NCBI RefSeq assembly: GCF_035594765.1
Contig: NC_085844.1
Span: 64,991,923 to 65,055,922 of the forward strand
Reading direction: 5' to 3'
DNA: 64,000 nucleotides
Source of the DNA: Anolis carolinensis
Taxonomy: Eukaryota
Part shown: positions 11,125 through 64,000 of the stretch, piece by piece
Layout: the number at the start of each line of letters is the position of its first letter
Numbering within the stretch: position 1 is the first letter of the stretch
Position numbers and translations under genes: made by a program
Notes under the pieces: generated by a model
The model's input: the letters and a program-made list of their open reading frames with translations, nothing else
The model's database searches: none
Told to the model about the DNA's origin: nothing

Positions 11125-12975
11125 GGGTAAGGTGGCTTTGTAGGTCAAAACTAGCACTTTGAATTGTGCTCGGAAAGGTGTTGGCAGCCAGTGGAGCTGT
11201 CGCAACTGAGGAGTTGTCCACTCCCTGTAGCCATCCCCAGTTAGCAGTCTGCCTGCTGCTCTTTGGACCAACTGAAATTTCTGAGCACTTTTCAAAGGCA
11301 GCCCCATGTAGAGCCCATTACAGTTGTTCAATTGGGATGTAACCAAAGTATGTATTGTGGCAAGATATGACTTCTCCAGGAATGGGCACAGTTGGCACAC
11401 TAGCTTTAACTATGTAAAAGCATAGTTAAAGGCCCAGGTATCACTGCTGATACCTGGGCCTCCAGGTTCAGAGCCAAATGCAAGAGTCCTCCCAAACGGT
11501 GAACCTGCATTTTCAGGAGCAGTGTAACCCCATCTAACACAGGCTGACTCCCTATTCTCAGACGTCTTACAACTGACTAGAAGCACCTCTGTCTTGTCTT
11601 GATTAAGCTTCAATTTGTTTGCCCTAATCCAGCCCATTACAGCTACCAGGCACCAGTTTACCACAGGAAAAGCTTGCTTGGAATTAGGTGAAAAGCAGTG
11701 GTACAGTCGGCTGTCATGTGCATATAGATAGCACCACACTCCAAATGTCCGGATGACCTCTCCCAGTGGTTTCATGTATATGTTGAACAGCATGGGGACC
11801 AGCACAGAGCCCTGAGGGACCTCACAGGCCAATGACCAAGGAGTCAAACAGAAGTCCCATAGCACCACCTTCTGAAAATGTCTCTCCAGGAAGGAACAGA
11901 GCCACTGAAGAACAGTATCTCCAAGCCCCATCCTAGAAATGTGACCCAGAAGGATACCATTGTTGATGATATTGAAAACCACTGAAAGGTACAGGAGAAC
12001 TAACAGGGACACACTCCCTCTGTCTAGTTCTCTGTATAGATCATCCACCAAGGTGACCAAAGCTGTTTCTGTCCCATAACCAGGACTGAAACCAGACTGA
12101 AATGGATCTAAATAATTTGCTTCATCAAGGAACCCTTAGAGTTGTGAAGCCACCACATGCTCCAGAACCTTGCCTAAAAATGGGAGGTTGAAGACTGGTC
12201 TGTAGTTGTCCAGTATAGAGGGGTCTAAGGAAGGTTTTTTTTTAAGAAGTGGTCTTACCACCGCATTCTTGAGGCCTGAGAATGGCATGTTAATTACTTC
12301 CCTGACCCACTCCACCATTCCCCCCTTGTCTGTTTTGTGAGCCAGGAAGGGCAAGGGTCTAGAGCACATGTGGTGGCTCTCATCTCTCCAAGAATCCTGT
12401 CCACATTCCCAGGCTGTACAAATTGAAATGTATCCATCAACACAGAACAAGCAGGTGCCAAAGTTACATCCACCGGAGCTGTATCAACTGTGGCATCTAA
12501 GTCAGAGAGAATCTGAGCAATCTTATCTGCAAAATTGAGGTGTGCTGTTGTATGGTCAACATTATCTTTCGGGCCAGGTTGGATTAGGCCTCTAACTACC
12601 CGAAACAGCTCTGCTGGATTGATTTTGTGCTGAAGCAATAGTATTTTGCTGGTTTTATTGCACCATCATAGATCTTCAGATACATCTTTACTTATTTTCA
12701 GTCAGAACCACTCTGAGTTCCCTGCCACTGTTGCTGTAGTCCTCATCTCATGCGTTTCATTGCTGCCAGGGCCTTAGTGAACCAGGGGGCCGGTTTAGCT
12801 CCACTTTGTGAGAAGGGCAATTGTATCTACCACCCTGCTCATTTCCCCATTCCAGAAATCGACCAGGGTTTCAACAGGATCACTTGTTCGGGTAGTGGGA
12901 AATTCCCCAAGAGCCATTAGGAATCCATCTGGATCCATAAGCCTCCTGGCGCGGGCCATCTTAATGGGTCCAAGG
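11125..12975 (-). mobile_element. L2 LINE ORF2 (tether plus RT), 5'-truncated, frameshifted
   Basis: Minus-strand ORF pieces: GPIKMARARRLMDPDGFL, NFADKIAQI, TTCALDPCPSW, PSLDPSILDNYRPVFNLPFLGKVLEHVVASQL, VPQGSVL, YAHD (the YADD equivalent), NKLKLNQDKTEVL and LHWLP..FKVLVLTYKA. Confidence 0.95.
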
Positions 12976-38822: not shown

Positions 38823-39432
38823 GATAGAATCATAGAGTTGGAAGAGACCTTGTGGGCCATCCAGTCCAATCCCCTGCCAAGAAGCAGGAAAATCACATTC
38901 AAAGCACCCCCGACAGATGGCCATCCATCCTCTGCTTAAAAGCCTCCAAAGAAGGATCCTCAACCACACTCCGGGGGAGAGAGTTCCAGTGCTGAACAGC
39001 TCTCAAAGTTAGGAAGTTCTTCCTAATGTCCAGGTGGAATCTCCTTTCCTGTAATTTGAAGCCATTGTTCCATGTCCTAGTCTCCAAGTTAGCAGAAAAC
39101 AAGTTTGCTTCCTCCTCCCTATGACTTCCCCTCACATATTTATACATGGCTATCATGCCTCCTCTCAGCCTTCTCTTCTGCAGGGTAAACATGCCCAGTT
39201 CTTTAAACTGCTTTTCATATGACTTGTTCTCCAGACCCTTGACCCTCCTCTGAACACATTCCAGCTTGTCAACATCTCCCTTAAATTGCAGTGCCAAGAA
39301 TTGGACACAGTATTCCAGGTGTGGTCTGACCAAGGCAAAATAGAGGGGTAGCATGCCTTCCCTACATCTAGACACTATACTCCTATTTATGCAGGGCAAA
39401 ATCCCATTGGCTTTTTTAGCTGCCGCATCACA
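38823..39432 (-). mobile_element. CR1 LINE 3' end (5'-truncated)
   Basis: CDAAAKKANGIL.CINRSI...LVRPHLEYCVQF...LECVQRR...LKELGMF.LQKRRLRG...WNSLP, followed by a CTCTATGATTCTAT octamer-type tail. Confidence 0.95.
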
Positions 39433-41070
39433 TATCACGTATTGTAGATGACACAAAACCGAAGATAACAGTGAAGATAACTTACTGAAATAAAAGACTT
39501 CTGCTCCCAAGTGCCACAAAATCATGCTGGACAATCTACAAAATAGAGATGTTAGGCATGGATAAATTAAACTGGGGGTAAAGATCCCACTAATCCAAGA
39601 GTTACACTGCATAAGAAACCATTGTACATGAGACTTAAACATTGCAGTTGGGAGCATTCTACTGCAAGATAATAAAATAATAATAGATGTGCCTGATTTT
39701 ACTGTCTGAATGATATGGATGGCAACTTCACTAACTCAAACTAAATCAAACTAAATGCACAGGTAAGATATAATGGTGCAGGAAGTTCAAGACAAATGAA
39801 ATGCAAATCTGAACCATTTCTATTTTCAACAGCCACTGTGACCCTCTTAAATCTGCCTTGAAACAGGTTCTGGAGTAGACTAATGGTAAGCCTAGGGTCA
39901 AGTTAATCCCTGAGCCTAGTTAACTCCCTCTTCTCATCAAGTCCTTGGTTCTAATCTTCAAAGAACATTCTATAGGAAACCAGTTCTCTCTATGAGCAAT
40001 ACTAACTTGTGGTGAATTGTTAACTCACTTTAGCTCCTATTTAATGATAAAGATCAAGTCAACCAGAACGAAGAATTTGAGAGTGGAAGATAAGACGATT
40101 TTGGTCATGGGGATCTGACTAAGGAATAAACTTCAAGAACAGATTAGAATAATTCAGCATCTGGCCACCTTTATGGGTCATACTTCAAGACCTTCTTCTC
40201 TGATAAAGCTTTTCCATCATAATCACACTGACACTCATAACATCTCCCATATTTCTTAGCCTTCAAATAGGGCTTCACACAGCTAGCAAGAGAAATGAAT
40301 CCAAGGTTCCCTGAAGGGCATGAAGTGCCTTGCTCTGGAAATCTTATTAACCTGGAAAGTTTTTTTAAATGGAAACTTCACAAAAGTTCTCCTCCTGAAA
40401 AAGCTAATTCATGGTGACTCCACAGTAATGGGTAACATTTCTATTTCAGTTCCAGATAACATTTTAATATTTTTCTCTTGAAAAAAATAATTAATTTGCC
40501 ATTAGCTACTATAGATTCCTGTGTATTTGTAAAAGATTGTAGAAATAAAATGGAACACTGAGTTATTTCACATTACTGATCTTGTGAGTTGCAAAATTTT
40601 CACAACAGCAACAACAACAATAACATACCTATTCATTAAATATATTAGAAACATTTATTACAGTGCATGAGGATCAGAGCCTCTTGAGGAATCTAGACAT
40701 GCAATTTATAAGCATTTCTCCAGGACTTTATAGTCTCATTAGGTGAAATAAATCTTTTAAAAATATTGTTAGTCACATATTTAGGGTGTTCTCAATTATG
40801 ATCAAATTAATGTTAATATCAGATTGGCTGGAGAGTGCAATCACTTCAGCATGGCCTGGTTAAATCAGCTGAAATGTAAACATGCAGCTAACAAAATGAG
40901 ATATAATTAATCAGTCATTGGATGGGAGCACAGAAGATATCTTCATGTCCTCTCTATACCTTTTGCAGAACAAATTTTGTGTCACCTTAGAATGGGTCAT
41001 GACTTGGTGGCACTGCAAAAGGTGTAGTGGTGAAAAGCCATGCCTCATACCCCAATCATATATGCCATAG

Positions 41071-55994: not shown

Positions 55995-56225
55995 TGTTCC
56001 CGGGTGGAAAGGGTTTACTAAAACTTTGTTTTTGTGGTCCGCACAAAGGTTAACTCTCTTCTACTGTTCTCACAAGATACATCTCTAGCCACTACGCACG
56101 ATAGGTCCCAACACGGCTCTCCTGCTCTAGAGAGCTGACTAGGCCCGTTAAAAGGCAGTTTCATCTTGCCTAACCCTACTGAGGGGGCAGGTGGTCCCCA
56201 GGGGGGAAAGATTGAGGTCATGTGG
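55995..56225 (+). mobile_element. 5' part of the young L2 element split by the Gypsy insertion
   Basis: The frame is open from 56139 (..EGAGGPQGGKIEVMW) and continues without a break into GRRRSGH... after the 3' LTR once one TSD is removed. The left boundary is approximate. Confidence 0.75.
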
Positions 56226-56621
56226 TGTGATGACCCATGGGCCTTGTAGTCCTGCTCAGGACATTGTAATTCCTGATGAAGATGAAAACTTGGGTTTTTT
56301 ACCTTCCCAGTCTGAACTGGATTCCTCTCTGCCAGATCTTTCCCAGGCAGATCTGGGAACCTTGCACCTGCAAGAAAGTTGTCTCCCAGAAGTATGTCAA
56401 ACAAGCCCAGAGCCTACTTCTCCCGTATTCTTGCGCCGGGAGTTTTGTAAACAACAGAGAAGTTTGGATTCAGCTTCGCGCAGGAGTGCGCGGATTGCAG
56501 CTAAGAATGTGGCCAATTAAGACTGCTTCTCGTGAGAATCTTTGGGGAGTCTCACATCTGGTCTCAGAGTTAGCTTTCGGTTCTGATTCCCAGAGAACTG
56601 CTTCGGCGGGAAGCTAGACTC

Positions 56622-56662
56622 TATTTAGGTGTTTTACCCGCGTAGTAACTTCGCGGAGTCAA
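56622..56662 (+). promoter_or_regulatory. LTR promoter: TATA-like box and predicted TSS/self-primer sequence
   Basis: TATTTA at 56622 lies 31 nt upstream of GCGGAGTCAA (56653-56662), which is complementary to the PBS. Confidence 0.7.
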
Positions 56663-57126
56663 TTCGTCAGCCTACGGAGCGAGTTGTGTCTGGACAGCGC
56701 GCTCCGGTTCAAGCCTCGCTCCTGCTCAAGCCTTGCCTTGCTATCCAGCCTTCGCCTTGCTTCCCAGCCTTTGTTTATCTACGGACTTTGCCTTGTTTCC
56801 CAGGATCAATCCTTGCCTTGTTCCACGGATTTATCAAGTTATTCCACGGACCTTGTTCTTGTTCTTAGTTACCTTGTTCCACGTTCAAGCCTTGTTTCAA
56901 GTATCAAGTTATTTCCTAGCCTCGCTCAAGTTTCATGGACTAAAGGACCTTGTCATCTCCCCTCACTTTGCTTGGCAAAGTGAGTGTTTCGGTTATTGGA
57001 TTACAACTTTGGACCTTAATATTTCTTATTGGACATTGCTTTTTTGGACTAATTCTGACCTTTCCTGGAAGGTCTAATTCTGGACTATTTTCTACACTTG
57101 TTTTTATTAACTTTATATATTCCTAC

Positions 57127-57132
57127 AATAAA
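57127..57132 (+). terminator. LTR polyadenylation signal (3' LTR copy at 62577-62582)
   Basis: AATAAA followed by a GU-rich tract (TCTGTGTATGGTTATTGGTG) near the LTR end. Confidence 0.75.
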
Positions 57133-57197
57133 GATATTAGATAGATTCTGGCCTCTGTGTATGGTTATTGGTGCTCTGCAGCCTGGGTCGTGACAGT

Positions 57198-57207
57198 TTG
57201 ACTCCGC
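57198..57207 (+). promoter_or_regulatory. Self-priming primer-binding site
   Basis: TTGACTCCGC starts 2 nt after the LTR. It lacks the TGG expected for tRNA priming and is the exact reverse complement of 56653-56662. Confidence 0.8.
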
Positions 57208-57237
57208 CACCCTAAGCACCAATTAACCTCGGCCAGA

Positions 57238-58230
57238 ATGTCTACCGGAACCGTACCTGGGCCGAGCGGCCAGCCGATTACCTACACCATCGACAAGGAA
57301 GAGGTGGACCGAATCCGTGATAAGCTCAATGCACAGGATGGAGAAATAAGGGGTTTGAAGGAACGCGGAGTTCGTCTTCCGGCCATGGCGTTGCCAACCA
57401 AGTTTACTGGAGAAGCTTCTAAGGTTCATGTCTTCCGTCGCCAATGTCAAGCTTATCTGGAGGCCCGTGCTGCCGAGTTTCCCCAAGAAGACATCAAAGT
57501 GGCATGGGTTTACAGTCTTCTAGACGGGCCAGCGGCCAGCTGGGCGACGGCACTGTTCGACCAAGCCTCTCCACACCTAAGATCAGCGCAACACTTCTTG
57601 GACCACCTCAAGGAGACTTGGGGAATCGAGGACAATTTGGAGGCAGCCGGTCACAAACTCCGTCGCCTTTTCCAAGGAGACAGACCTATGTCTCAGTATA
57701 TAGCCGAGTTCCGAGTGCTGGCCCACAACACCGGCTGGAACGATGTAGCCCTCAGGGGACAATTCCGGGAGGGTCTCAACATTGAAATGCTGGAAGAAAT
57801 CTCCAAGGTGGATCCTCCCCAGACCCTCGAGGCACTCATTGATCAATGTTTACGGGCTGAAGTCATGATTGCCAACAGGAAACAGTGGGTTCGAGGCCAG
57901 GGCAGTAGAGCCGGGGCAAAACCCCCCGCTCCCGCCAGCGTTCAGCCACGTCCGGTGTGGAGACCCCCACCGCCAACCCCATACCCCAGAGGAGGCGAGG
58001 AGGTGCCGATGCAGTTGGGCAATGTGCGTCCCAGACTAGATGCCGCCGAGAAGGCCCGTCGTCAACGCTTAAACCTCTGCTGGTACTGCGGGAACGGGGG
58101 CCACTTCGCCAGAGAGTGTCCAGCCAAAGGGAAGCCTGCCGCCCGTCTTGCGGCGGCGTCCTCCACGGAGACGAAGGCGTCTGAGCCGACTGGCACACAG
58201 CCGGCGGGGGAAGCCAACGACCGGGTGTAG
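57238..58230 (+). CDS. gag: Gag (capsid-like domain plus CCHC zinc knuckle), 330 aa
   Basis: LPTKFTG...LLDGPAASW...LFQGDRPMSQYIAEFR...QFREGL and PMQLG...RRQRLNLCWYCGNGGHFARECP, a sushi/PEG10-type Gag. Confidence 0.97.
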   Translation: MSTGTVPGPSGQPITYTIDKEEVDRIRDKLNAQDGEIRGLKERGVRLPAMALPTKFTGEASKVHVFRRQCQAYLEARAAEFPQEDIKVAWVYSLLDGPAASWATALFDQASPHLRSAQHFLDHLKETWGIEDNLEAAGHKLRRLFQGDRPMSQYIAEFRVLAHNTGWNDVALRGQFREGLNIEMLEEISKVDPPQTLEALIDQCLRAEVMIANRKQWVRGQGSRAGAKPPAPASVQPRPVWRPPPPTPYPRGGEEVPMQLGNVRPRLDAAEKARRQRLNLCWYCGNGGHFARECPAKGKPAARLAAASSTETKASEPTGTQPAGEANDRV

Positions 58231-61200
58231 AGGGGCTCGCCAACCCGGTCAAAAAATCCATCCAAGAGCCGCCAACCGGGGTCCTGTTCCTTCTCGTGGT
58301 CACATTATGGTCAGCAAAAAGGGGACCCGTCATGATCCACGCCATGATAGACTCTGGAGCTACCAACAATTTCATCGATAGAGAGTATGCCGACTCTCTG
58401 GGATTACAATATCATGATTTCAAGAATGCCCGTGTGGTGCAAGCCATAGACGGCCGCCCCCTCAAGACGGGCCCCGTAAGTCAGTGGTCGGAACCCACCA
58501 GGATGTGGATAAGGGAACATATGGAAGAGATTTCCTTCTTTGTTACCGAGGTCCCCCATTTCCCTGTGATTTTGGGAATTCCATGGCTGACTCTCCACGA
58601 CCCTAACATCTCCTGGTCCAACAGAGAACTGCAGTTTGCTTCACCGTACTGCCAAAACCATTGCCTCGTAGCCAAGGTATGCCATGCCACAGACACCGAG
58701 CCCATCATCACCTTGCCAAAGAAGTACTCCGAGTATTGGGATGTATTCAACGAGAAAGAAGCCGAAAAATTACCCCCACATAGACCTTATGACTGTGCCA
58801 TTGACTTGGTGGAGGGGGCCCCGATCCCGCGAGGGCATCTCTACTCCCTGACTGAACCAGAGCAAGAAGCTCTCAGGGAATTCCTAGAGACAAACCTTCG
58901 CAAGGGATTCATCAGACCCTCTCAATCCCCAGCCGCCTCCCCAGTGATGTTTGTGAAGAAGAAGTCAGGGGAACTACGCTTGGTGGTGGACTACAGAGCA
59001 TTGAACAATATCACCAAGCGGAACAGCTATCCCCTGCCTTTAATCTCGGATCTACTGGATCGGCTTCGAGGAGCCAAGGTTTACACCAAGCTGGATCTTC
59101 GGGGGGCTTACAACTTAGTTCGCATCAGGGAAGGGGACGAGTGGAAGACCGCCTTCCAGACCAAATTCGGATTATTTGAGTCCCGAGTTATGAATTTCGG
59201 TTTATGCGGAGCCCCCGCAACGTTCCAGCATTTTGTCAATGACATTTTTCAGGACTATCTAGACAGGTTCTTGATAATCTACCTGGACGATTTTTTGGTG
59301 TTTTCCAGATCACAATCAGAACATGAGAACCACGTCAAAATGGTGTTACAACGATTGCGGGATCATGGACTTTATGCCAAGCTGGAAAAATGCGCTTTTG
59401 ATCTACAAGAGGTAGATTTCCTTGGTTACCGCATCTCGCCTCTAGGGCTTTCCATGGATCCAGCCAAAGTTTCAGCAGTATTGGAATGGCGGGCGCCAAC
59501 TAACAAGAAAGAGGTGCAGCGTTTCTTGGGGTTCGCGAACTACTACCGCAAGTTCATTCCAGATTTTGCCCGCTGGTCCGACCCCATCACTAGCTGCATC
59601 CGTGGAAAGCAGCCTTTCCGCTGGACTGATCAAGCAGAGAAAGGGTTCCAGCAACTAAAGAAACTATTCACCTCCCAGCCAATTCTACAGCACCCAAATC
59701 CTGGAACCCCTTTTGTGGTGCAAGCGGACGCCTCTGATGTGGCAATTGGGGCTGTACTCTTACAACCGGTGGGAGATCACCTCCACCCCTGTGCCTTTTA
59801 TTCTCGTCAACTAACCACACCAGAGAGGAATTACACCATTTGGGAAAAAGAACTACTGGCCATAAAGGCAGCCTTTGAAACTTGGAGACATTGGCTAGAA
59901 GGGGCCAAATTTCCCATTGAAGTCCACACTGATCATCGTAATCTAGAACATCTAAGAACTGCCCGCAAACTAAATCAGAGGCAGCAACGTTGGGCTTTAT
60001 TCTTTGAACGTTTCAACTTCCAGATCCATTATGTGACCCCAGCCCAAACCAAGCAAGCAGACGCCCTGTCACGTAAACCGGAATACGCTGCAGGACGCAA
60101 GGAGACCTTTGAATCCCAACTGCTACAACCTGAGAACTTTGCCACGCTCACGGTGGGGAACACCAAATCCATTCCCATTGGTTCAACTTCCCCTACTCCA
60201 GGACCCATCTGTGCTCAAGAAATCAGGGCTAGTCAGCAAGCAGATGCCTGGGCGCAGGACCAACTTCGCCAAGGTCTGCATTTCCCCTTTTCGCTTAAAG
60301 ATGGGCTGCTCTGCTATAGAAATCATGTCTATATCCCACCCGGACCGGGCAGGGAAAAAGCGCTTCGTCTGTGTCATGACTGCAAACCAGCAGGACACTT
60401 CGGACTATTTAAAACTATGCATTTGATCCTAAGGGATTTTTGGTGGCCCAAGATCCGCAAGGATGTGGAAAAATATGTCAACACCTGCCCAGTATGCCAG
60501 CGCTCCAAGATACGAAGGGAGAAGCCCTCAGGGCTTTTACACCCCCTTCCTACCCCATCTCGCCCATGGGAAATAATTTCCGCGGATTTCATCACTGACC
60601 TACCACCTTCCTGTGGATTCACCACGATCTTAGTGGTGGTGGACCTATTCACCAAGTTAGCCCATTTCATTCCCTGCGAAGGCCTCCCCACGGCCAAGGA
60701 AACTGCGGATCTATTTCTTCAACATGTCTTCAGACTACATGGATTGCCCAAGAGTTTAGTCACAGACCGTGGATCTCAATTCACCTCTCGTTTTTGGAAG
60801 GCACTACAAAAACTATTGGGCATAGACTCTCGCTTATCTTCAGCTCATCATCCCCAAACAGATGGGCAAACGGAGCGCACCAATGCCACTTTGGAGCAGT
60901 ATCTTCGCTGTTATGTAAACTATCAACAGGACAATTGGGCTTCTCTGTTACCACTGTCTGAGTTTGCCTACAACAATGGAGTTCAAGCTTCTACAAAAGA
61001 AACGCCGTTCTTTGCAAACTACGGCTTCCATCCACGTTTCTTTCCCCCTGTCATTGAAACTTCAGAGGTTCCCGCAGCAGAGGATTGGCTGCAGGAACTC
61101 ACAGCGGTGCAACAACTTTTGCTCCAGCAACTGGACCAAGCCAAGGGGGACTATAAACGCCACGCTGACAAACATCGCCAGCCGGGCCCCGAAATCAAGG

Positions 61201-61970
61201 TAGGAGATCGGGTTTTCCTGTCCACTCGCTTTCTGCCCTCCCACCGCCCTTGCCGGAAGTTAGATGCCCGTTTCATTGGCCCCTATCCAGTGGTGGCGCA
61301 ATTAAACCCCGTGACTTTCAAACTCCAACTTCCGCGTTCAATGCGCATTCACCCCGTGTTTCACCGTTCCCTGCTCCTTCCGGCGGATGGTGTGCGTCCT
61401 GATACAGACCAACCGGCCCCCCCTCCTGTTTTGATGAATGGGGAGGAGGAGTTCGAGGTTGAGGACATTTTGGATTCTCGCTTTCACCGCCGCCGCCTAC
61501 AATATCTCATTGACTGGGTGGGTTTTGGCCCTGAGGAACGCTCCTGGGAAGACGCCTCCACAGTCCATGCTCCTGATCTAACCCGTCGCTTTCATCAGAC
61601 CTATCCCACCAAACCGCGACCTCGCGCCTCGGGGAGAGGGCCCCAGTTTGGGAGGGGCCTTGAGGAGGGGGATAGTGTGATGACCCATGGGCCTTGTAGT
61701 CCTGCTCAGGACATTGTAATTCCTGATGAAGATGAAAACTTGGGTTTTTTACCTTCCCAGTCTGAACTGGATTCCTCTCTGCCAGATCTTTCCCAGGCAG
61801 ATCTGGGAACCTTGCACCTGCAAGAAAGTTGTCTCCCAGAAGTATGTCAAACAAGCCCAGAGCCTACTTCTCCCGTATTCTTGCGCCGGGAGTTTTGTAA
61901 ACAACAGAGAAGTTTGGATTCAGCTTCGCGCAGGAGTGCGCGGATTGCAGCTAAGAATGTGGCCAATTAA
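58185..61970 (+). CDS. pol: Pol polyprotein (protease, RT, RNase H, integrase, chromodomain, LTR-encoded tail), in the -1 frame relative to gag
   Basis: The frame is open from 58185 (after TGA at 58182) to TAA at 61968-61970. Motifs: DSGA, YLDD, DAS/EKELLAI/TDH, H..H/C..C, D-D-E (DFITDLP, TDRG, GQTERTN), GPY, and a chromodomain at ~61443-61605. Confidence 0.97.
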   Translation, partial: ADWHTAGGGSQRPGVEGLANPVKKSIQEPPTGVLFLLVVTLWSAKRGPVMIHAMIDSGATNNFIDREYADSLGLQYHDFKNARVVQAIDGRPLKTGPVSQWSEPTRMWIREHMEEISFFVTEVPHFPVILGIPWLTLHDPNISWSNRELQFASPYCQNHCLVAKVCHATDTEPIITLPKKYSEYWDVFNEKEAEKLPPHRPYDCAIDLVEGAPIPRGHLYSLTEPEQEALREFLETNLRKGFIRPSQSPAASPVMFVKKKSGELRLVVDYRALNNITKRNSYPLPLISDLLDRLRGAKVYTKLDLRGAYNLVRIREGDEWKTAFQTKFGLFESRVMNFGLCGAPATFQHFVNDIFQDYLDRFLIIYLDDFLVFSRSQSEHENHVKMVLQRLRDHGLYAKLEKCAFDLQEVDFLGYRISPLGLSMDPAKVSAVLEWRAPTNKKEVQRFLGFANYYRKFIPDFARWSDPITSCIRGKQPFRWTDQAEKGFQQLKKLFTSQPILQHPNPGTPFVVQADASDVAIGAVLLQPVGDHLHPCAFYSRQLTTPERNYTIWEKELLAIKAAFETWRHWLEGAKFPIEVHTDHRNLEHLRTARKLNQRQQRWALFFERFNFQIHYVTPAQTKQADALSRKPEYAAGRKETFESQLLQPENFATLTVGNTKSIPIGSTSPTPGPICAQEIRASQQADAWAQDQLRQGLHFPFSLKDGLLCYRNHVYIPPGPGREKALRLCHDCKPAGHFGLFKTMHLILRDFWWPKIRKDVEKYVNTCPVCQRSKIRREKPSGLLHPLPTPSRPWEIISADFITDLPPSCGFTTILVVVDLFTKLAHFIPCEGLPTAKETADLFLQHVFRLHGLPKSLVTDRGSQFTSRFWKALQKLLGIDSRLSSAHHPQTDGQTERTNATLEQYLRCYVNYQQDNWASLLPLSEFAYNNGVQASTKETPFFANYGFHPRFFPPVIETSEVPAAEDWLQELTAVQQLLLQQLDQAKGDYKRHADKHRQPGPEIKVGDRVFLSTRFLPSHRPCRKLDARFIGPYPVVAQLNPVTFKLQLPRSMRIHPVFHRSLLLPADGVRPDTDQPAPPPVLMNGEEEFEVEDILDSRFHRRRLQYLIDWVGFGPEERSWEDASTVHAPDLTRRFHQTYPTKPRPRASGRGPQFGRGLEEGDSVMTHGPCSPAQDIVIPDEDENLGFLPSQSELDSSLPDLSQADLGTLHLQESCLPEVCQTSPEPTSPVFLRREFCKQQRSLDSASRRSARIAAKNVAN
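61662..61675 (+). promoter_or_regulatory. Polypurine tract
   Basis: GAGGAGGGGGATAG directly abuts the 3' LTR TG. Confidence 0.9.
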
Positions 61971-62645
61971 GACTGCTTCTCGTGAGAATCTTTGGGGAGT
62001 CTCACATCTGGTCTCAGAGTTAGCTTTCGGTTCTGATTCCCAGAGAACTGCTTCGGCGGGAAGCTAGACTCTATTTAGGTGTTTTACCCGCGTAGTAACT
62101 TCGCGGAGTCAATTCGTCAGCCTACGGAGCGAGTTGTGTCTGGACAGCGCGCTCCGGTTCAAGCCTCGCTCCTGCTCAAGCCTTGCCTTGCTATCCAGCC
62201 TTCGCCTTGCTTCCCAGCCTTTGTTTATCTACGGACTTTGCCTTGTTTCCCAGGATCAATCCTTGCCTTGTTCCACGGATTTATCAAGTTATTCCACGGA
62301 CCTTGTTCTTGTTCTTAGTTACCTTGTTCCACGTTCAAGCCTTGTTTCAAGTATCAAGTTATTTCCTAGCCTCGCTCAAGTTTCATGGACTAAAGGACCT
62401 TGTCATCTCCCCTCACTTTGCTTGGCAAAGTGAGTGTTTCGGTTATTGGATTACAACTTTGGACCTTAATATTTCTTATTGGACATTGCTTTTTTGGACT
62501 AATTCTGACCTTTCCTGGAAGGTCTAATTCTGGACTATTTTCTACACTTGTTTTTATTAACTTTATATATTCCTACAATAAAGATATTAGATAGATTCTG
62601 GCCTCTGTGTATGGTTATTGGTGCTCTGCAGCCTGGGTCGTGACA
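61676..62645 (+). repeat. 3' LTR
   Basis: Direct repeat of 56226-57195, followed by the TSD TGTGG. Confidence 0.98.
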
Positions 62646-64000
62646 TGTGGGGGAGGAGGAGAAGCGGTCACCAAAATCCCAGGGAGAAGCGCAATAGAAC
62701 ACTTGCGACCCTGGAGAAGGAAAGGCGTGGTAGTCCTCATGACAGTCCCTTCGGGCTTAAAGTCCTGCTGTTGAATGCCAGGTCTGTTAATGGTAAGACC
62801 TCCGTCATCCAGGATTTACTCCTGGATGAGAGGGCAGACCTGGCCTGCATCACCGAGACCTGGTTGGATGAGCTGGGTGGGGTTAACCTCACTCAGCTGT
62901 GTCCTCCTGGTTTCGGGGTGCATCAGCAGGCCAGGCTCGGGGGGCGGGGAGGAGGGGTTGCGGTGGTCTTTCGGCAATCCATCGCCGTGGACAGGTGCGC
63001 TGTTCCGCAAGCCTCAGGTTTTGAGTGTGTCCACCTGAGGGTAGGTGTCCGGGACAGTTTGGGGATTCTGCTGGTGTACCGTCCACCCCGCGACACAGCA
63101 GTCTCCCTCCCTGAGCTTGCAGAAGTGGTCTCTGGCGTGGTGCTGGCCTCCCAGCGCCTGGTGGTGCTGGGGGACTTCAACATTCACGCGGAGGCCCCTT
63201 TAACTGGTGCAGCTCAGGACTTCATGGCTGCCATGACAACCATGGGACTGTCCCAGGTCATCTCTGGACCCACCCATCAGGCAGGACACACCCTTGACCT
63301 AGTATTTATTGCCGACAGTGGATTGGTTGGAGTGGAAGAGCAAACTATTCTTCCATTGTCATGGTCCGACCATCACCTGGTCACTTTAAGACTTACCGTG
63401 ACCACTAACCTCTGCAGGGGTGGTGGACCCATTAAGATGGTCCGCCCCAGGAGACTAATGGATCCAGACGGCTTCTTGAGGTCTCTTGGGGATCTTCCTG
63501 TCATTGAGGCTGACGATCCTGTTGATGTCTTGGTCGATCGCTACAACAGCGAGATGGCCAGGGCGATAGACACGATTGCCCCTGAACGTCCCCTCTCAAC
63601 CCGCCGACGCACCAGGGCTCCCTGGTTCACAAGGGAGCTGGCCGTGATGAAGCGGTCGAGAAGGGGTCTAGAGTGCTCCTGGCGGAGAACTCGTAGGGTA
63701 TCCGACCGAACACGGGCTAGAGCCGCTATTAGGGCCTATTCTGCGGCCTTGCGGGCAGCCAGAAAGGCTTTCTCGGCTGCCCGCATAGCATCTGCAATCA
63801 ATAGACCAACGGAGTTGTTTCGGGTTGTTGGGGAGCTCCTCCATCCTCCCCAGGGGGAGGAGACCCCTGACAACCCAGCAACTCAGTGCAGCGATTTCGC
63901 GCACTTTTTTGCAGATAAAGTCGCTCGGATACGCTCTGAGTTAGACACTGGGGTTAGTGCAATGCCAGGTGAGGTGCCTGAGGCATCTGTCTGTCCGATC
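62645..64000 (+). CDS. L2 LINE ORF2, N-terminal part (APE endonuclease plus tether), open to the window end; absent from the ORF track because it has no stop
   Basis: 452 uninterrupted codons: MWGRRR...LLLNARSVNGK...CITETWL...RGGGVA...VYRPP...VLGDFNIH...PTHQAGHTLDL...WSDH...GPIKMVRPRRLMDPDGFL...APWF...FADKVARIR. Confidence 0.93.
   Translation, partial: MWGRRRSGHQNPREKRNRTLATLEKERRGSPHDSPFGLKVLLLNARSVNGKTSVIQDLLLDERADLACITETWLDELGGVNLTQLCPPGFGVHQQARLGGRGGGVAVVFRQSIAVDRCAVPQASGFECVHLRVGVRDSLGILLVYRPPRDTAVSLPELAEVVSGVVLASQRLVVLGDFNIHAEAPLTGAAQDFMAAMTTMGLSQVISGPTHQAGHTLDLVFIADSGLVGVEEQTILPLSWSDHHLVTLRLTVTTNLCRGGGPIKMVRPRRLMDPDGFLRSLGDLPVIEADDPVDVLVDRYNSEMARAIDTIAPERPLSTRRRTRAPWFTRELAVMKRSRRGLECSWRRTRRVSDRTRARAAIRAYSAALRAARKAFSAARIASAINRPTELFRVVGELLHPPQGEETPDNPATQCSDFAHFFADKVARIRSELDTGVSAMPGEVPEASVCPI

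Follow-up and report, generated by a model that had tools for sequence, protein, structure and literature searches.

How does an LTR retrotransposon begin its minus-strand DNA when its primer-binding site (PBS) lacks the TGG of a tRNA-primed element? This question was raised by an element in a 64,000-nucleotide stretch of the Anolis carolinensis genome (hereafter the window). Judging from genomic sequence, we consider it highly probable that the PBS pairs with a 10-mer of the element's own LTR, which would act as the RNA 5′ end and prime minus-strand DNA in place of a tRNA.

The LTR element spans positions 56226-62645 of the window. It has protease, reverse transcriptase (RT), RNase H and integrase in that order between two LTRs, is flanked by a target-site duplication (TSD), and carries a chromodomain at the integrase C-terminus (PF00385, E value 2.7e-9, above its cut-off), which identifies it as a Ty3/gypsy chromovirus. 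Its RT-RNase H region shares 98% identity with UniRef proteins of Anolis carolinensis; further UniRef matches were gypsy proteins from lizard, snake, frog, fish, fungi and algae, and most of the best-matching proteins (lizard, frog, fish and fungal gypsy) contain SH3_Tf2-1 and chromo domains. The family is young and abundant: 721 bases were 100% identical at all 40 genomic places scored, and the genome holds 3,904 exact LTR-PBS junctions and 14,812 LTR primer sites.

Features of the element and of its predicted RNA (window coordinates)
Feature	Position	Strand	Remarks
Left target-site duplication TGTGG	56221-56225	.	same 5-mer at 62646-62650
5′ LTR, 970 bp, TG...CA	56226-57195	+	sequence identical to 3′ LTR; terminus ...GTGACA
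TATA-like box TATTTA	56622-56627	+	TATATA or AATATA in many relatives
Predicted RNA 5′ end and 10-nt self-primer GCGGAGTCAA	56653-56662	+	transcription start predicted
R stretch, candidate third pretzel duplex with U5 end 57184-57194	56666-56674	+	-11.9 kcal/mol
Poly(A) signal AATAAA	57127-57132	+	475 nt downstream of predicted start
U5-leader stem, 5′ arms	57145-57153 and 57163-57175	+	folding, covariation, RNAalifold
Spacer GT, 2 nt, LTR end to PBS	57196-57197	+	
Primer-binding site (PBS) TTGACTCCGC	57198-57207	+	without TGG
U5-leader stem, 3′ arms	57215-57228 and 57231-57239	+	extend into gag ATG
gag ORF, 330 aa	57238-58230	+	DUF4939, Retrotrans_gag, zf-CCHC
pol ORF, -1 frame	58185-61970	+	protease, RT, RNase H, integrase, SH3_Tf2-1, chromodomain
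Polypurine tract, then 2-nt spacer AG, then 3′ LTR	61662-61675	+	
3′ LTR, 970 bp	61676-62645	+	
Right target-site duplication TGTGG	62646-62650	.	

Several other features of the locus were recorded. The element lies within a LINE, and the LINE's endonuclease ORF (PF03372, PF14529) resumes to the right of the 3′ LTR (56220-56225, 62646-64000); the insertion point is an in-frame ATG TGG, which the LTR end CA and the TSD restore. By eye, ORF fragments at 11410-12135 and 38899-39735, both on the minus strand, resemble decayed LINE reverse transcriptases. The pol frame stays open for about 295 nt (about 98 codons) into U3 of the 3′ LTR (61676-61970), as it does into the 3′ LTR of L161, a copy of the related family C described below. 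At the gag-pol -1 overlap (58206-58212), G GGG GAA is conserved in the window's family (A), and related families B, C and E have G GGA AAA or G GGA AAC, possibly a non-canonical slippery site. Elsewhere in the genome, PBS junctions lie one element length apart (G000:C4:165310232 and 165315682; G000:C3:55178506-55189432), a spacing that points to tandem LTR-internal-LTR arrays; Tf1 without integrase yields such tandems (PMC11042837, excerpt).

The preliminary description had noted GT and a sequence without TGG directly after the 5′ LTR, together with a perfect 10-nt complement 31 nt past TATTTA. Both were confirmed: the former lies at 57196-57207, and the PBS (57198-57207) is perfectly complementary over 10 nt to LTR positions 56653-56662, across a loop of 535 nt. 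The 31 nt run from the start of TATTTA (56622) to that of GCGGAGTCAA (56653), and GCGGAGTCAA occurs in the window only in the 5′ LTR (56653) and the 3′ LTR (62103). When the LTR was dinucleotide-shuffled, a 10-nt complement starting at most 4 nt from the LTR end arose in 7 of 5000 shuffles, and one anywhere in the first 18 nt in 11 of 5000.

To compare the PBS with host tRNAs, we combined an Rfam search with fetched tRNA clusters, giving 48 distinct genes that cover 26 anticodons and 15 amino acids (without Asn, Glu, Trp, Tyr and Val); fetching further clusters added only one more distinct gene. Across these 48 tRNAs, the PBS did not show the pattern of a tRNA-primed element, namely a start in TGG and a match to a tRNA 3′ end. 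No mature CCA end fits the PBS because it lacks TGG; the best Watson-Crick match was 7/10, at an internal site, and the best among the mature 3′ ends of 47 genes still had 3 mismatches. That a host tRNA, a tRNA half or another small host RNA primes the element, the LTR match being incidental, could draw on an internal stretch of tRNA-Leu(cag) that fits 9/10 when G-U pairs are allowed, and on the 26 anticodons and 15 amino acids to which the sample extends. We regard this alternative as exceedingly improbable given that 14 different PBS sequences, presented next, each match their own LTR. Among the families fetched, we found no tRNA-primed gypsy family to serve as a negative control.

To see whether the complementarity is kept among relatives, we performed gag-family searches of the same genome and fetched regions from it, obtaining 141 loci, window included. 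Nine of the 141 lacked the junction pattern, and merging the others left 115 distinct junctions, which fall into seven families, A (the window's) to G. We wrote the junction patterns with the sequences already in view; for members of A, B, C, E, F and G, however, LTR pairs and TSDs located the LTR ends independently. At 93 of the 115 junctions, the PBS was perfectly complementary, over no fewer than 10 nt, to a site upstream within its own element (A 28/35, B 24/30, C 15/17, D 0/3, E 21/25, F 4/4, G 1/1). The other 22 junctions, including 3/3 of family D, had no perfect match; five family A misses that we checked were one-sided point changes. Matches between different families numbered 2 in the whole matrix. 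In total there were 14 distinct primer/PBS pairs. Among the primers are GCGGAGTCAA in family A, GCGTGTGGCAA in B, GCGTTGGGCAA in C, ATTCTTGGCTT in F, AGTAGTGTTATT in G and, in E, six variants of ATTCAGTACAA, 1-2 positions off the commonest. The complementarity is therefore conserved and covaries across families, and, as set out below, within them. Together with the lack of fit among the sampled host tRNAs, this supports the earlier interpretation of the locus as an intact vertebrate self-priming element. Separately, copies of families B, C and F (L185, L161, L165) match the window's Pol as far as about residue 1050-1069, short of the chromodomain; these families may thus lack this domain through loss, with the self-complementary PBS kept. 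In L161, the 9-nt stretch directly following the primer, GGTAATCTG, is also able to pair with the LTR end and the PBS start (CAGATTGCC), possibly an alternative register.

The position of the match agrees with a transcription start. In six families it begins 28-32 nt downstream of a TATA-like hexamer (93/93 matched junctions, with a loose motif list) and does not reach further upstream, and it starts at a pyrimidine|purine step in 91/93; this step and spacing are as expected for a Pol II start. The RNA might nevertheless start elsewhere, leaving the 10-mer internal, either excised at both ends as a primer or binding the PBS as a structural or regulatory switch, with something else acting as primer. 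The start here is predicted, and Tf2 of S. pombe uses alternative start sites (PMC5341516). We consider an internal 10-mer very unlikely, in view both of these start-like properties and of the 2-nt spacer between LTR end and PBS, which is kept in 89/93 matched junctions. The base after the PBS (57208 and its equivalents) is C in 89/93 matched elements (A 28/28, B 23/24, C 15/15, E 21/21, F 1/4, G 1/1), and this C could pair with, or be a copy of, the cap G of the primer.

Single copies of family A have also changed on both sides. A search for PBS variants at the A position returned 23 copies; one for variants at the T position found none. GCGGAGACAA was present in the LTR of 17 of the 21 copies with PBS TTGTCTCCGC; two of the other four keep GCGGAGTCAA, one has a further change and one is without the site. 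One copy with PBS TTGGCTCCGC has no compensation in its LTR. Copy L254 carries GCGGAGGCAA in both LTRs and the complementary PBS TTGCCTCCGC; its LTRs are 99.7% identical and its TSD is intact. For the CpG variant CCAC in the PBS, we considered all 33 copies: 6 have the matching GTGG primer, 26 have none and 1 is without the site. GTGG was found at 165 of 14,977 LTR sites (1.1%, a background uncorrected for copy age), and the six compensated copies go back to four independent lineages (p about 4e-4, with no correction for age). In 4/4 compensated copies with the second LTR at hand, GTGG is present in both LTRs, so the change predates insertion. The 26 uncompensated copies likely reflect CpG decay after insertion. 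The 100 GTGG sites listed out of the 165 included two elements that carry it in both LTRs; one of them, L270, keeps the old PBS, as expected of a first-round or unresolved copy, and we did not count it as support. Because GTGG would pair with the old PBS by G-U wobble, selection to keep the pairing gives the PBS little cause to change as well; a simple explanation would be that the primer is copied into the plus-strand PBS.

These within-copy changes bear on whether the primer acts in trans, that is, on another RNA molecule. The long loop and the competing local pairings would favor this arrangement, as would the excess of LTR primer sites over PBS junctions (14,812 vs 3,904) and two elements, L238 and L242, that combine the primer of the window's subfamily with the PBS of its sister subfamily. 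These two can, however, be plain point mutations, RNA 56653-57210 is predicted to fold with the intramolecular duplex, and private changes track between the primer and the PBS of one element. We therefore think priming in trans unlikely.

We then assessed the predicted RNA structure. The primer:PBS duplex has an energy of -16.7 kcal/mol, and RNA 56653-57210 folds with this duplex at a probability of 0.85-1.0; competing pairings exist. When the leader was added, nested folding placed the duplex at 0.03 or less. This drop arises because U5 (57145-57175) pairs with the leader (57215-57239), crossing the first duplex, and nested models cannot show such a pseudoknot. For the same reason, folding of the whole RNA (z 0.01) is uninformative as a test. 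The U5-leader stem itself had a z of -3.84, and RNAalifold recovered the same helices unaided. In 35 family members, 93.2% of cells pair and four pairs change on both sides; the two-sided changed cells numbered 28, compared with 8.5 in shuffles (0/500). Related sequences inflate these measures, and the number of pairs with two-sided change in these 35 members was not above shuffles (212/500). In families B, C, E and G, the U5-leader duplex was not above shuffles. The published pretzel consists of a central primer:PBS duplex and two duplexes between PBS-adjacent and LTR sequences (PMC10085805, excerpt). The covarying U5-leader stem gives the modeled RNA of family A a Tf1-type pretzel topology. 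A candidate third duplex averages -9.9 kcal/mol in family A vs -7.8 shuffled, weak support there, and -9.5 vs -3.9 shuffled in family E.

The preliminary description had given a loop of about 535 nt and had called the implied R, of about 500 nt, unusually long. The loop length is real, but it is not special to this element: loops measure 439-535 nt in family A, 441-634 in B and 612-768 in C, and 77-99 in E, F and G; that of D is about 200-260 nt, taken from imperfect matches. R would be about 500 nt if the predicted start is right, and a long R is likewise not peculiar to the window's element, being common to several families. In the tree, E, F and G group together (100/100), as do B and C (100/100), and the links between A, B+C and D are weak. 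We found no support for an intron within the long R that would make the loop shorter, as the GTGAGT donor at 56980 is GTGTGT in the 4 relatives compared and no joint was seen. Four presumed-RNA contig sets over the stretch showed no joints or poly(A) loose end among those listed; contigs cannot show where an RNA starts or ends. R also holds a 10-bp hairpin, CTCACTTTGC-TTG-GCAAAGTGAG, at 56962-56984. With AATAAA lying within R, the 5′ LTR must avoid early polyadenylation. LTR models of fish Sushi likewise have AATAAA near the LTR 3′ end (PMC3601003, excerpt). Only at the 5′ LTR is the GU-rich stretch downstream of AATAAA covered by the U5-leader stem, which as modeled would solve this problem there. 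In copy L189 of the short-loop family E, AATAAA overlaps the last primer bases.

A mechanism can be proposed from these data. Pol II would start at G56653; nucleotides 1-10 of the RNA would then fold over the 535-nt loop onto the PBS, with U5 pairing to the leader to form a pseudoknotted pretzel. The element's RT/RNase H, whose RNase H domain is present, would cut after nucleotide 10 by analogy with Tf1, in which bases 1-11 pair with the PBS and RNase H cleavage falls between bases 11 and 12 (PMC7175516, excerpt). From the new 3′ end, RT would synthesize DNA across U5 and the long R, and strand transfer would follow. Plus-strand synthesis would later copy the RNA primer, so that a primer change can be written into the PBS. 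In Tf1, the cDNA 3′ end often retains a PBS copy (PMC11042837, excerpt).

More tentatively, and with rather less than even confidence, we offer a joint reading of these results. Thousands of copies may form a natural mutational record proving that the capped 5′ end of a vertebrate retrotransposon is its primer and is reverse-transcribed into its PBS: changes private to one copy's primer recur in that copy's PBS, and the C after the PBS (89/93) would be the copied cap. Self-priming would also work over loops of 440-770 nt in one lineage, with the U5-leader stem masking the poly(A) signal's downstream part in the 5′ LTR but not in the 3′ LTR.

Self-priming is an already described trait of the Tf1/sushi group, vertebrates included. 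As the preliminary description had stated, and as excerpts of PMC7175516 and PMC10085805 bear out, it is known for Tf1 and proposed for vertebrate sushi-group elements; it was shown experimentally in fission yeast and is implicated or proposed from sequence for vertebrates (excerpts of PMC10085805 and PMC6317226). In the literature searched, we found no experimental test of self-priming in a vertebrate and no single-copy coupling of primer and PBS. Nor did this literature yield an account of these Anolis primers, although Butler 2001, known to us through citations, may list reptile elements or loop sizes. The available excerpts of PMC4340606, PMC2864245 and PMC11042837 held nothing further on vertebrate priming. 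The Anolis genome offers unusually dense comparative support, with seven families, 14 primer/PBS pairs and single copies changed on both sides. Genome-wide covariation and exact RNA-end predictions make a vertebrate test straightforward: the cap is predicted at 56653, the cut at 56662|56663 and a 10-nt RNA (GCGGAGUCAA) on strong-stop DNA. Given about 3,900 copies that carry a PBS, some of them identical, the mechanism is directly testable in lizard tissue, and the short-loop and long-loop families permit a comparison of loop-size tolerance.

Finally, we compared the Anolis element with known self-priming elements. Its primer has 10 nt vs 11 in Tf1, a difference that we counted against the likeness. 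The Tf1 loop, about 90 nt, compares with 535 nt in the Anolis element. In Tf1 the mechanism was shown by experiment, whereas in the Anolis element, which has a vertebrate host, it is read from sequence. Tf1 and Tf2 (Schizosaccharomyces pombe) and Tj1 (S. japonicus) share with it the lack of a tRNA PBS, a PBS complementary to the predicted RNA 5′ end and a chromodomain integrase (excerpts of PMC7175516, PMC4600332 and PMC10085805), as well as the U5-leader duplex of the pretzel that crosses the primer:PBS duplex (PMC10085805, excerpt). The Anolis element has a gag with a CCHC knuckle and a -1 pol frame, whereas Tf1 and Tf2 have no CCHC and one ORF (PMC10085805, excerpt). CCHC gag and a -1 gag-pol overlap are shared with vertebrate sushi-group chromoviruses, for which self-priming and the pretzel were proposed by Butler 2001 (as cited in excerpts of PMC10085805 and PMC6317226); the Anolis element differs in being a lizard family. 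Self-priming has likewise been predicted from PBS-LTR complementarity for the plant/fungal Tcn1 clade (PMC6317226), which has other hosts and is more distant from the Anolis element in RT-RNase H. Our tree, which is midpoint-rooted, has weak deep forks and contains no named sushi-ichi or tRNA-primed outgroup, places the element among the vertebrate rows; its sub-clade is not fixed because the tree has no named V-clade reference. Taken with these comparisons, the element probably works like Tf1 and very likely belongs to the Tf1/sushi group.
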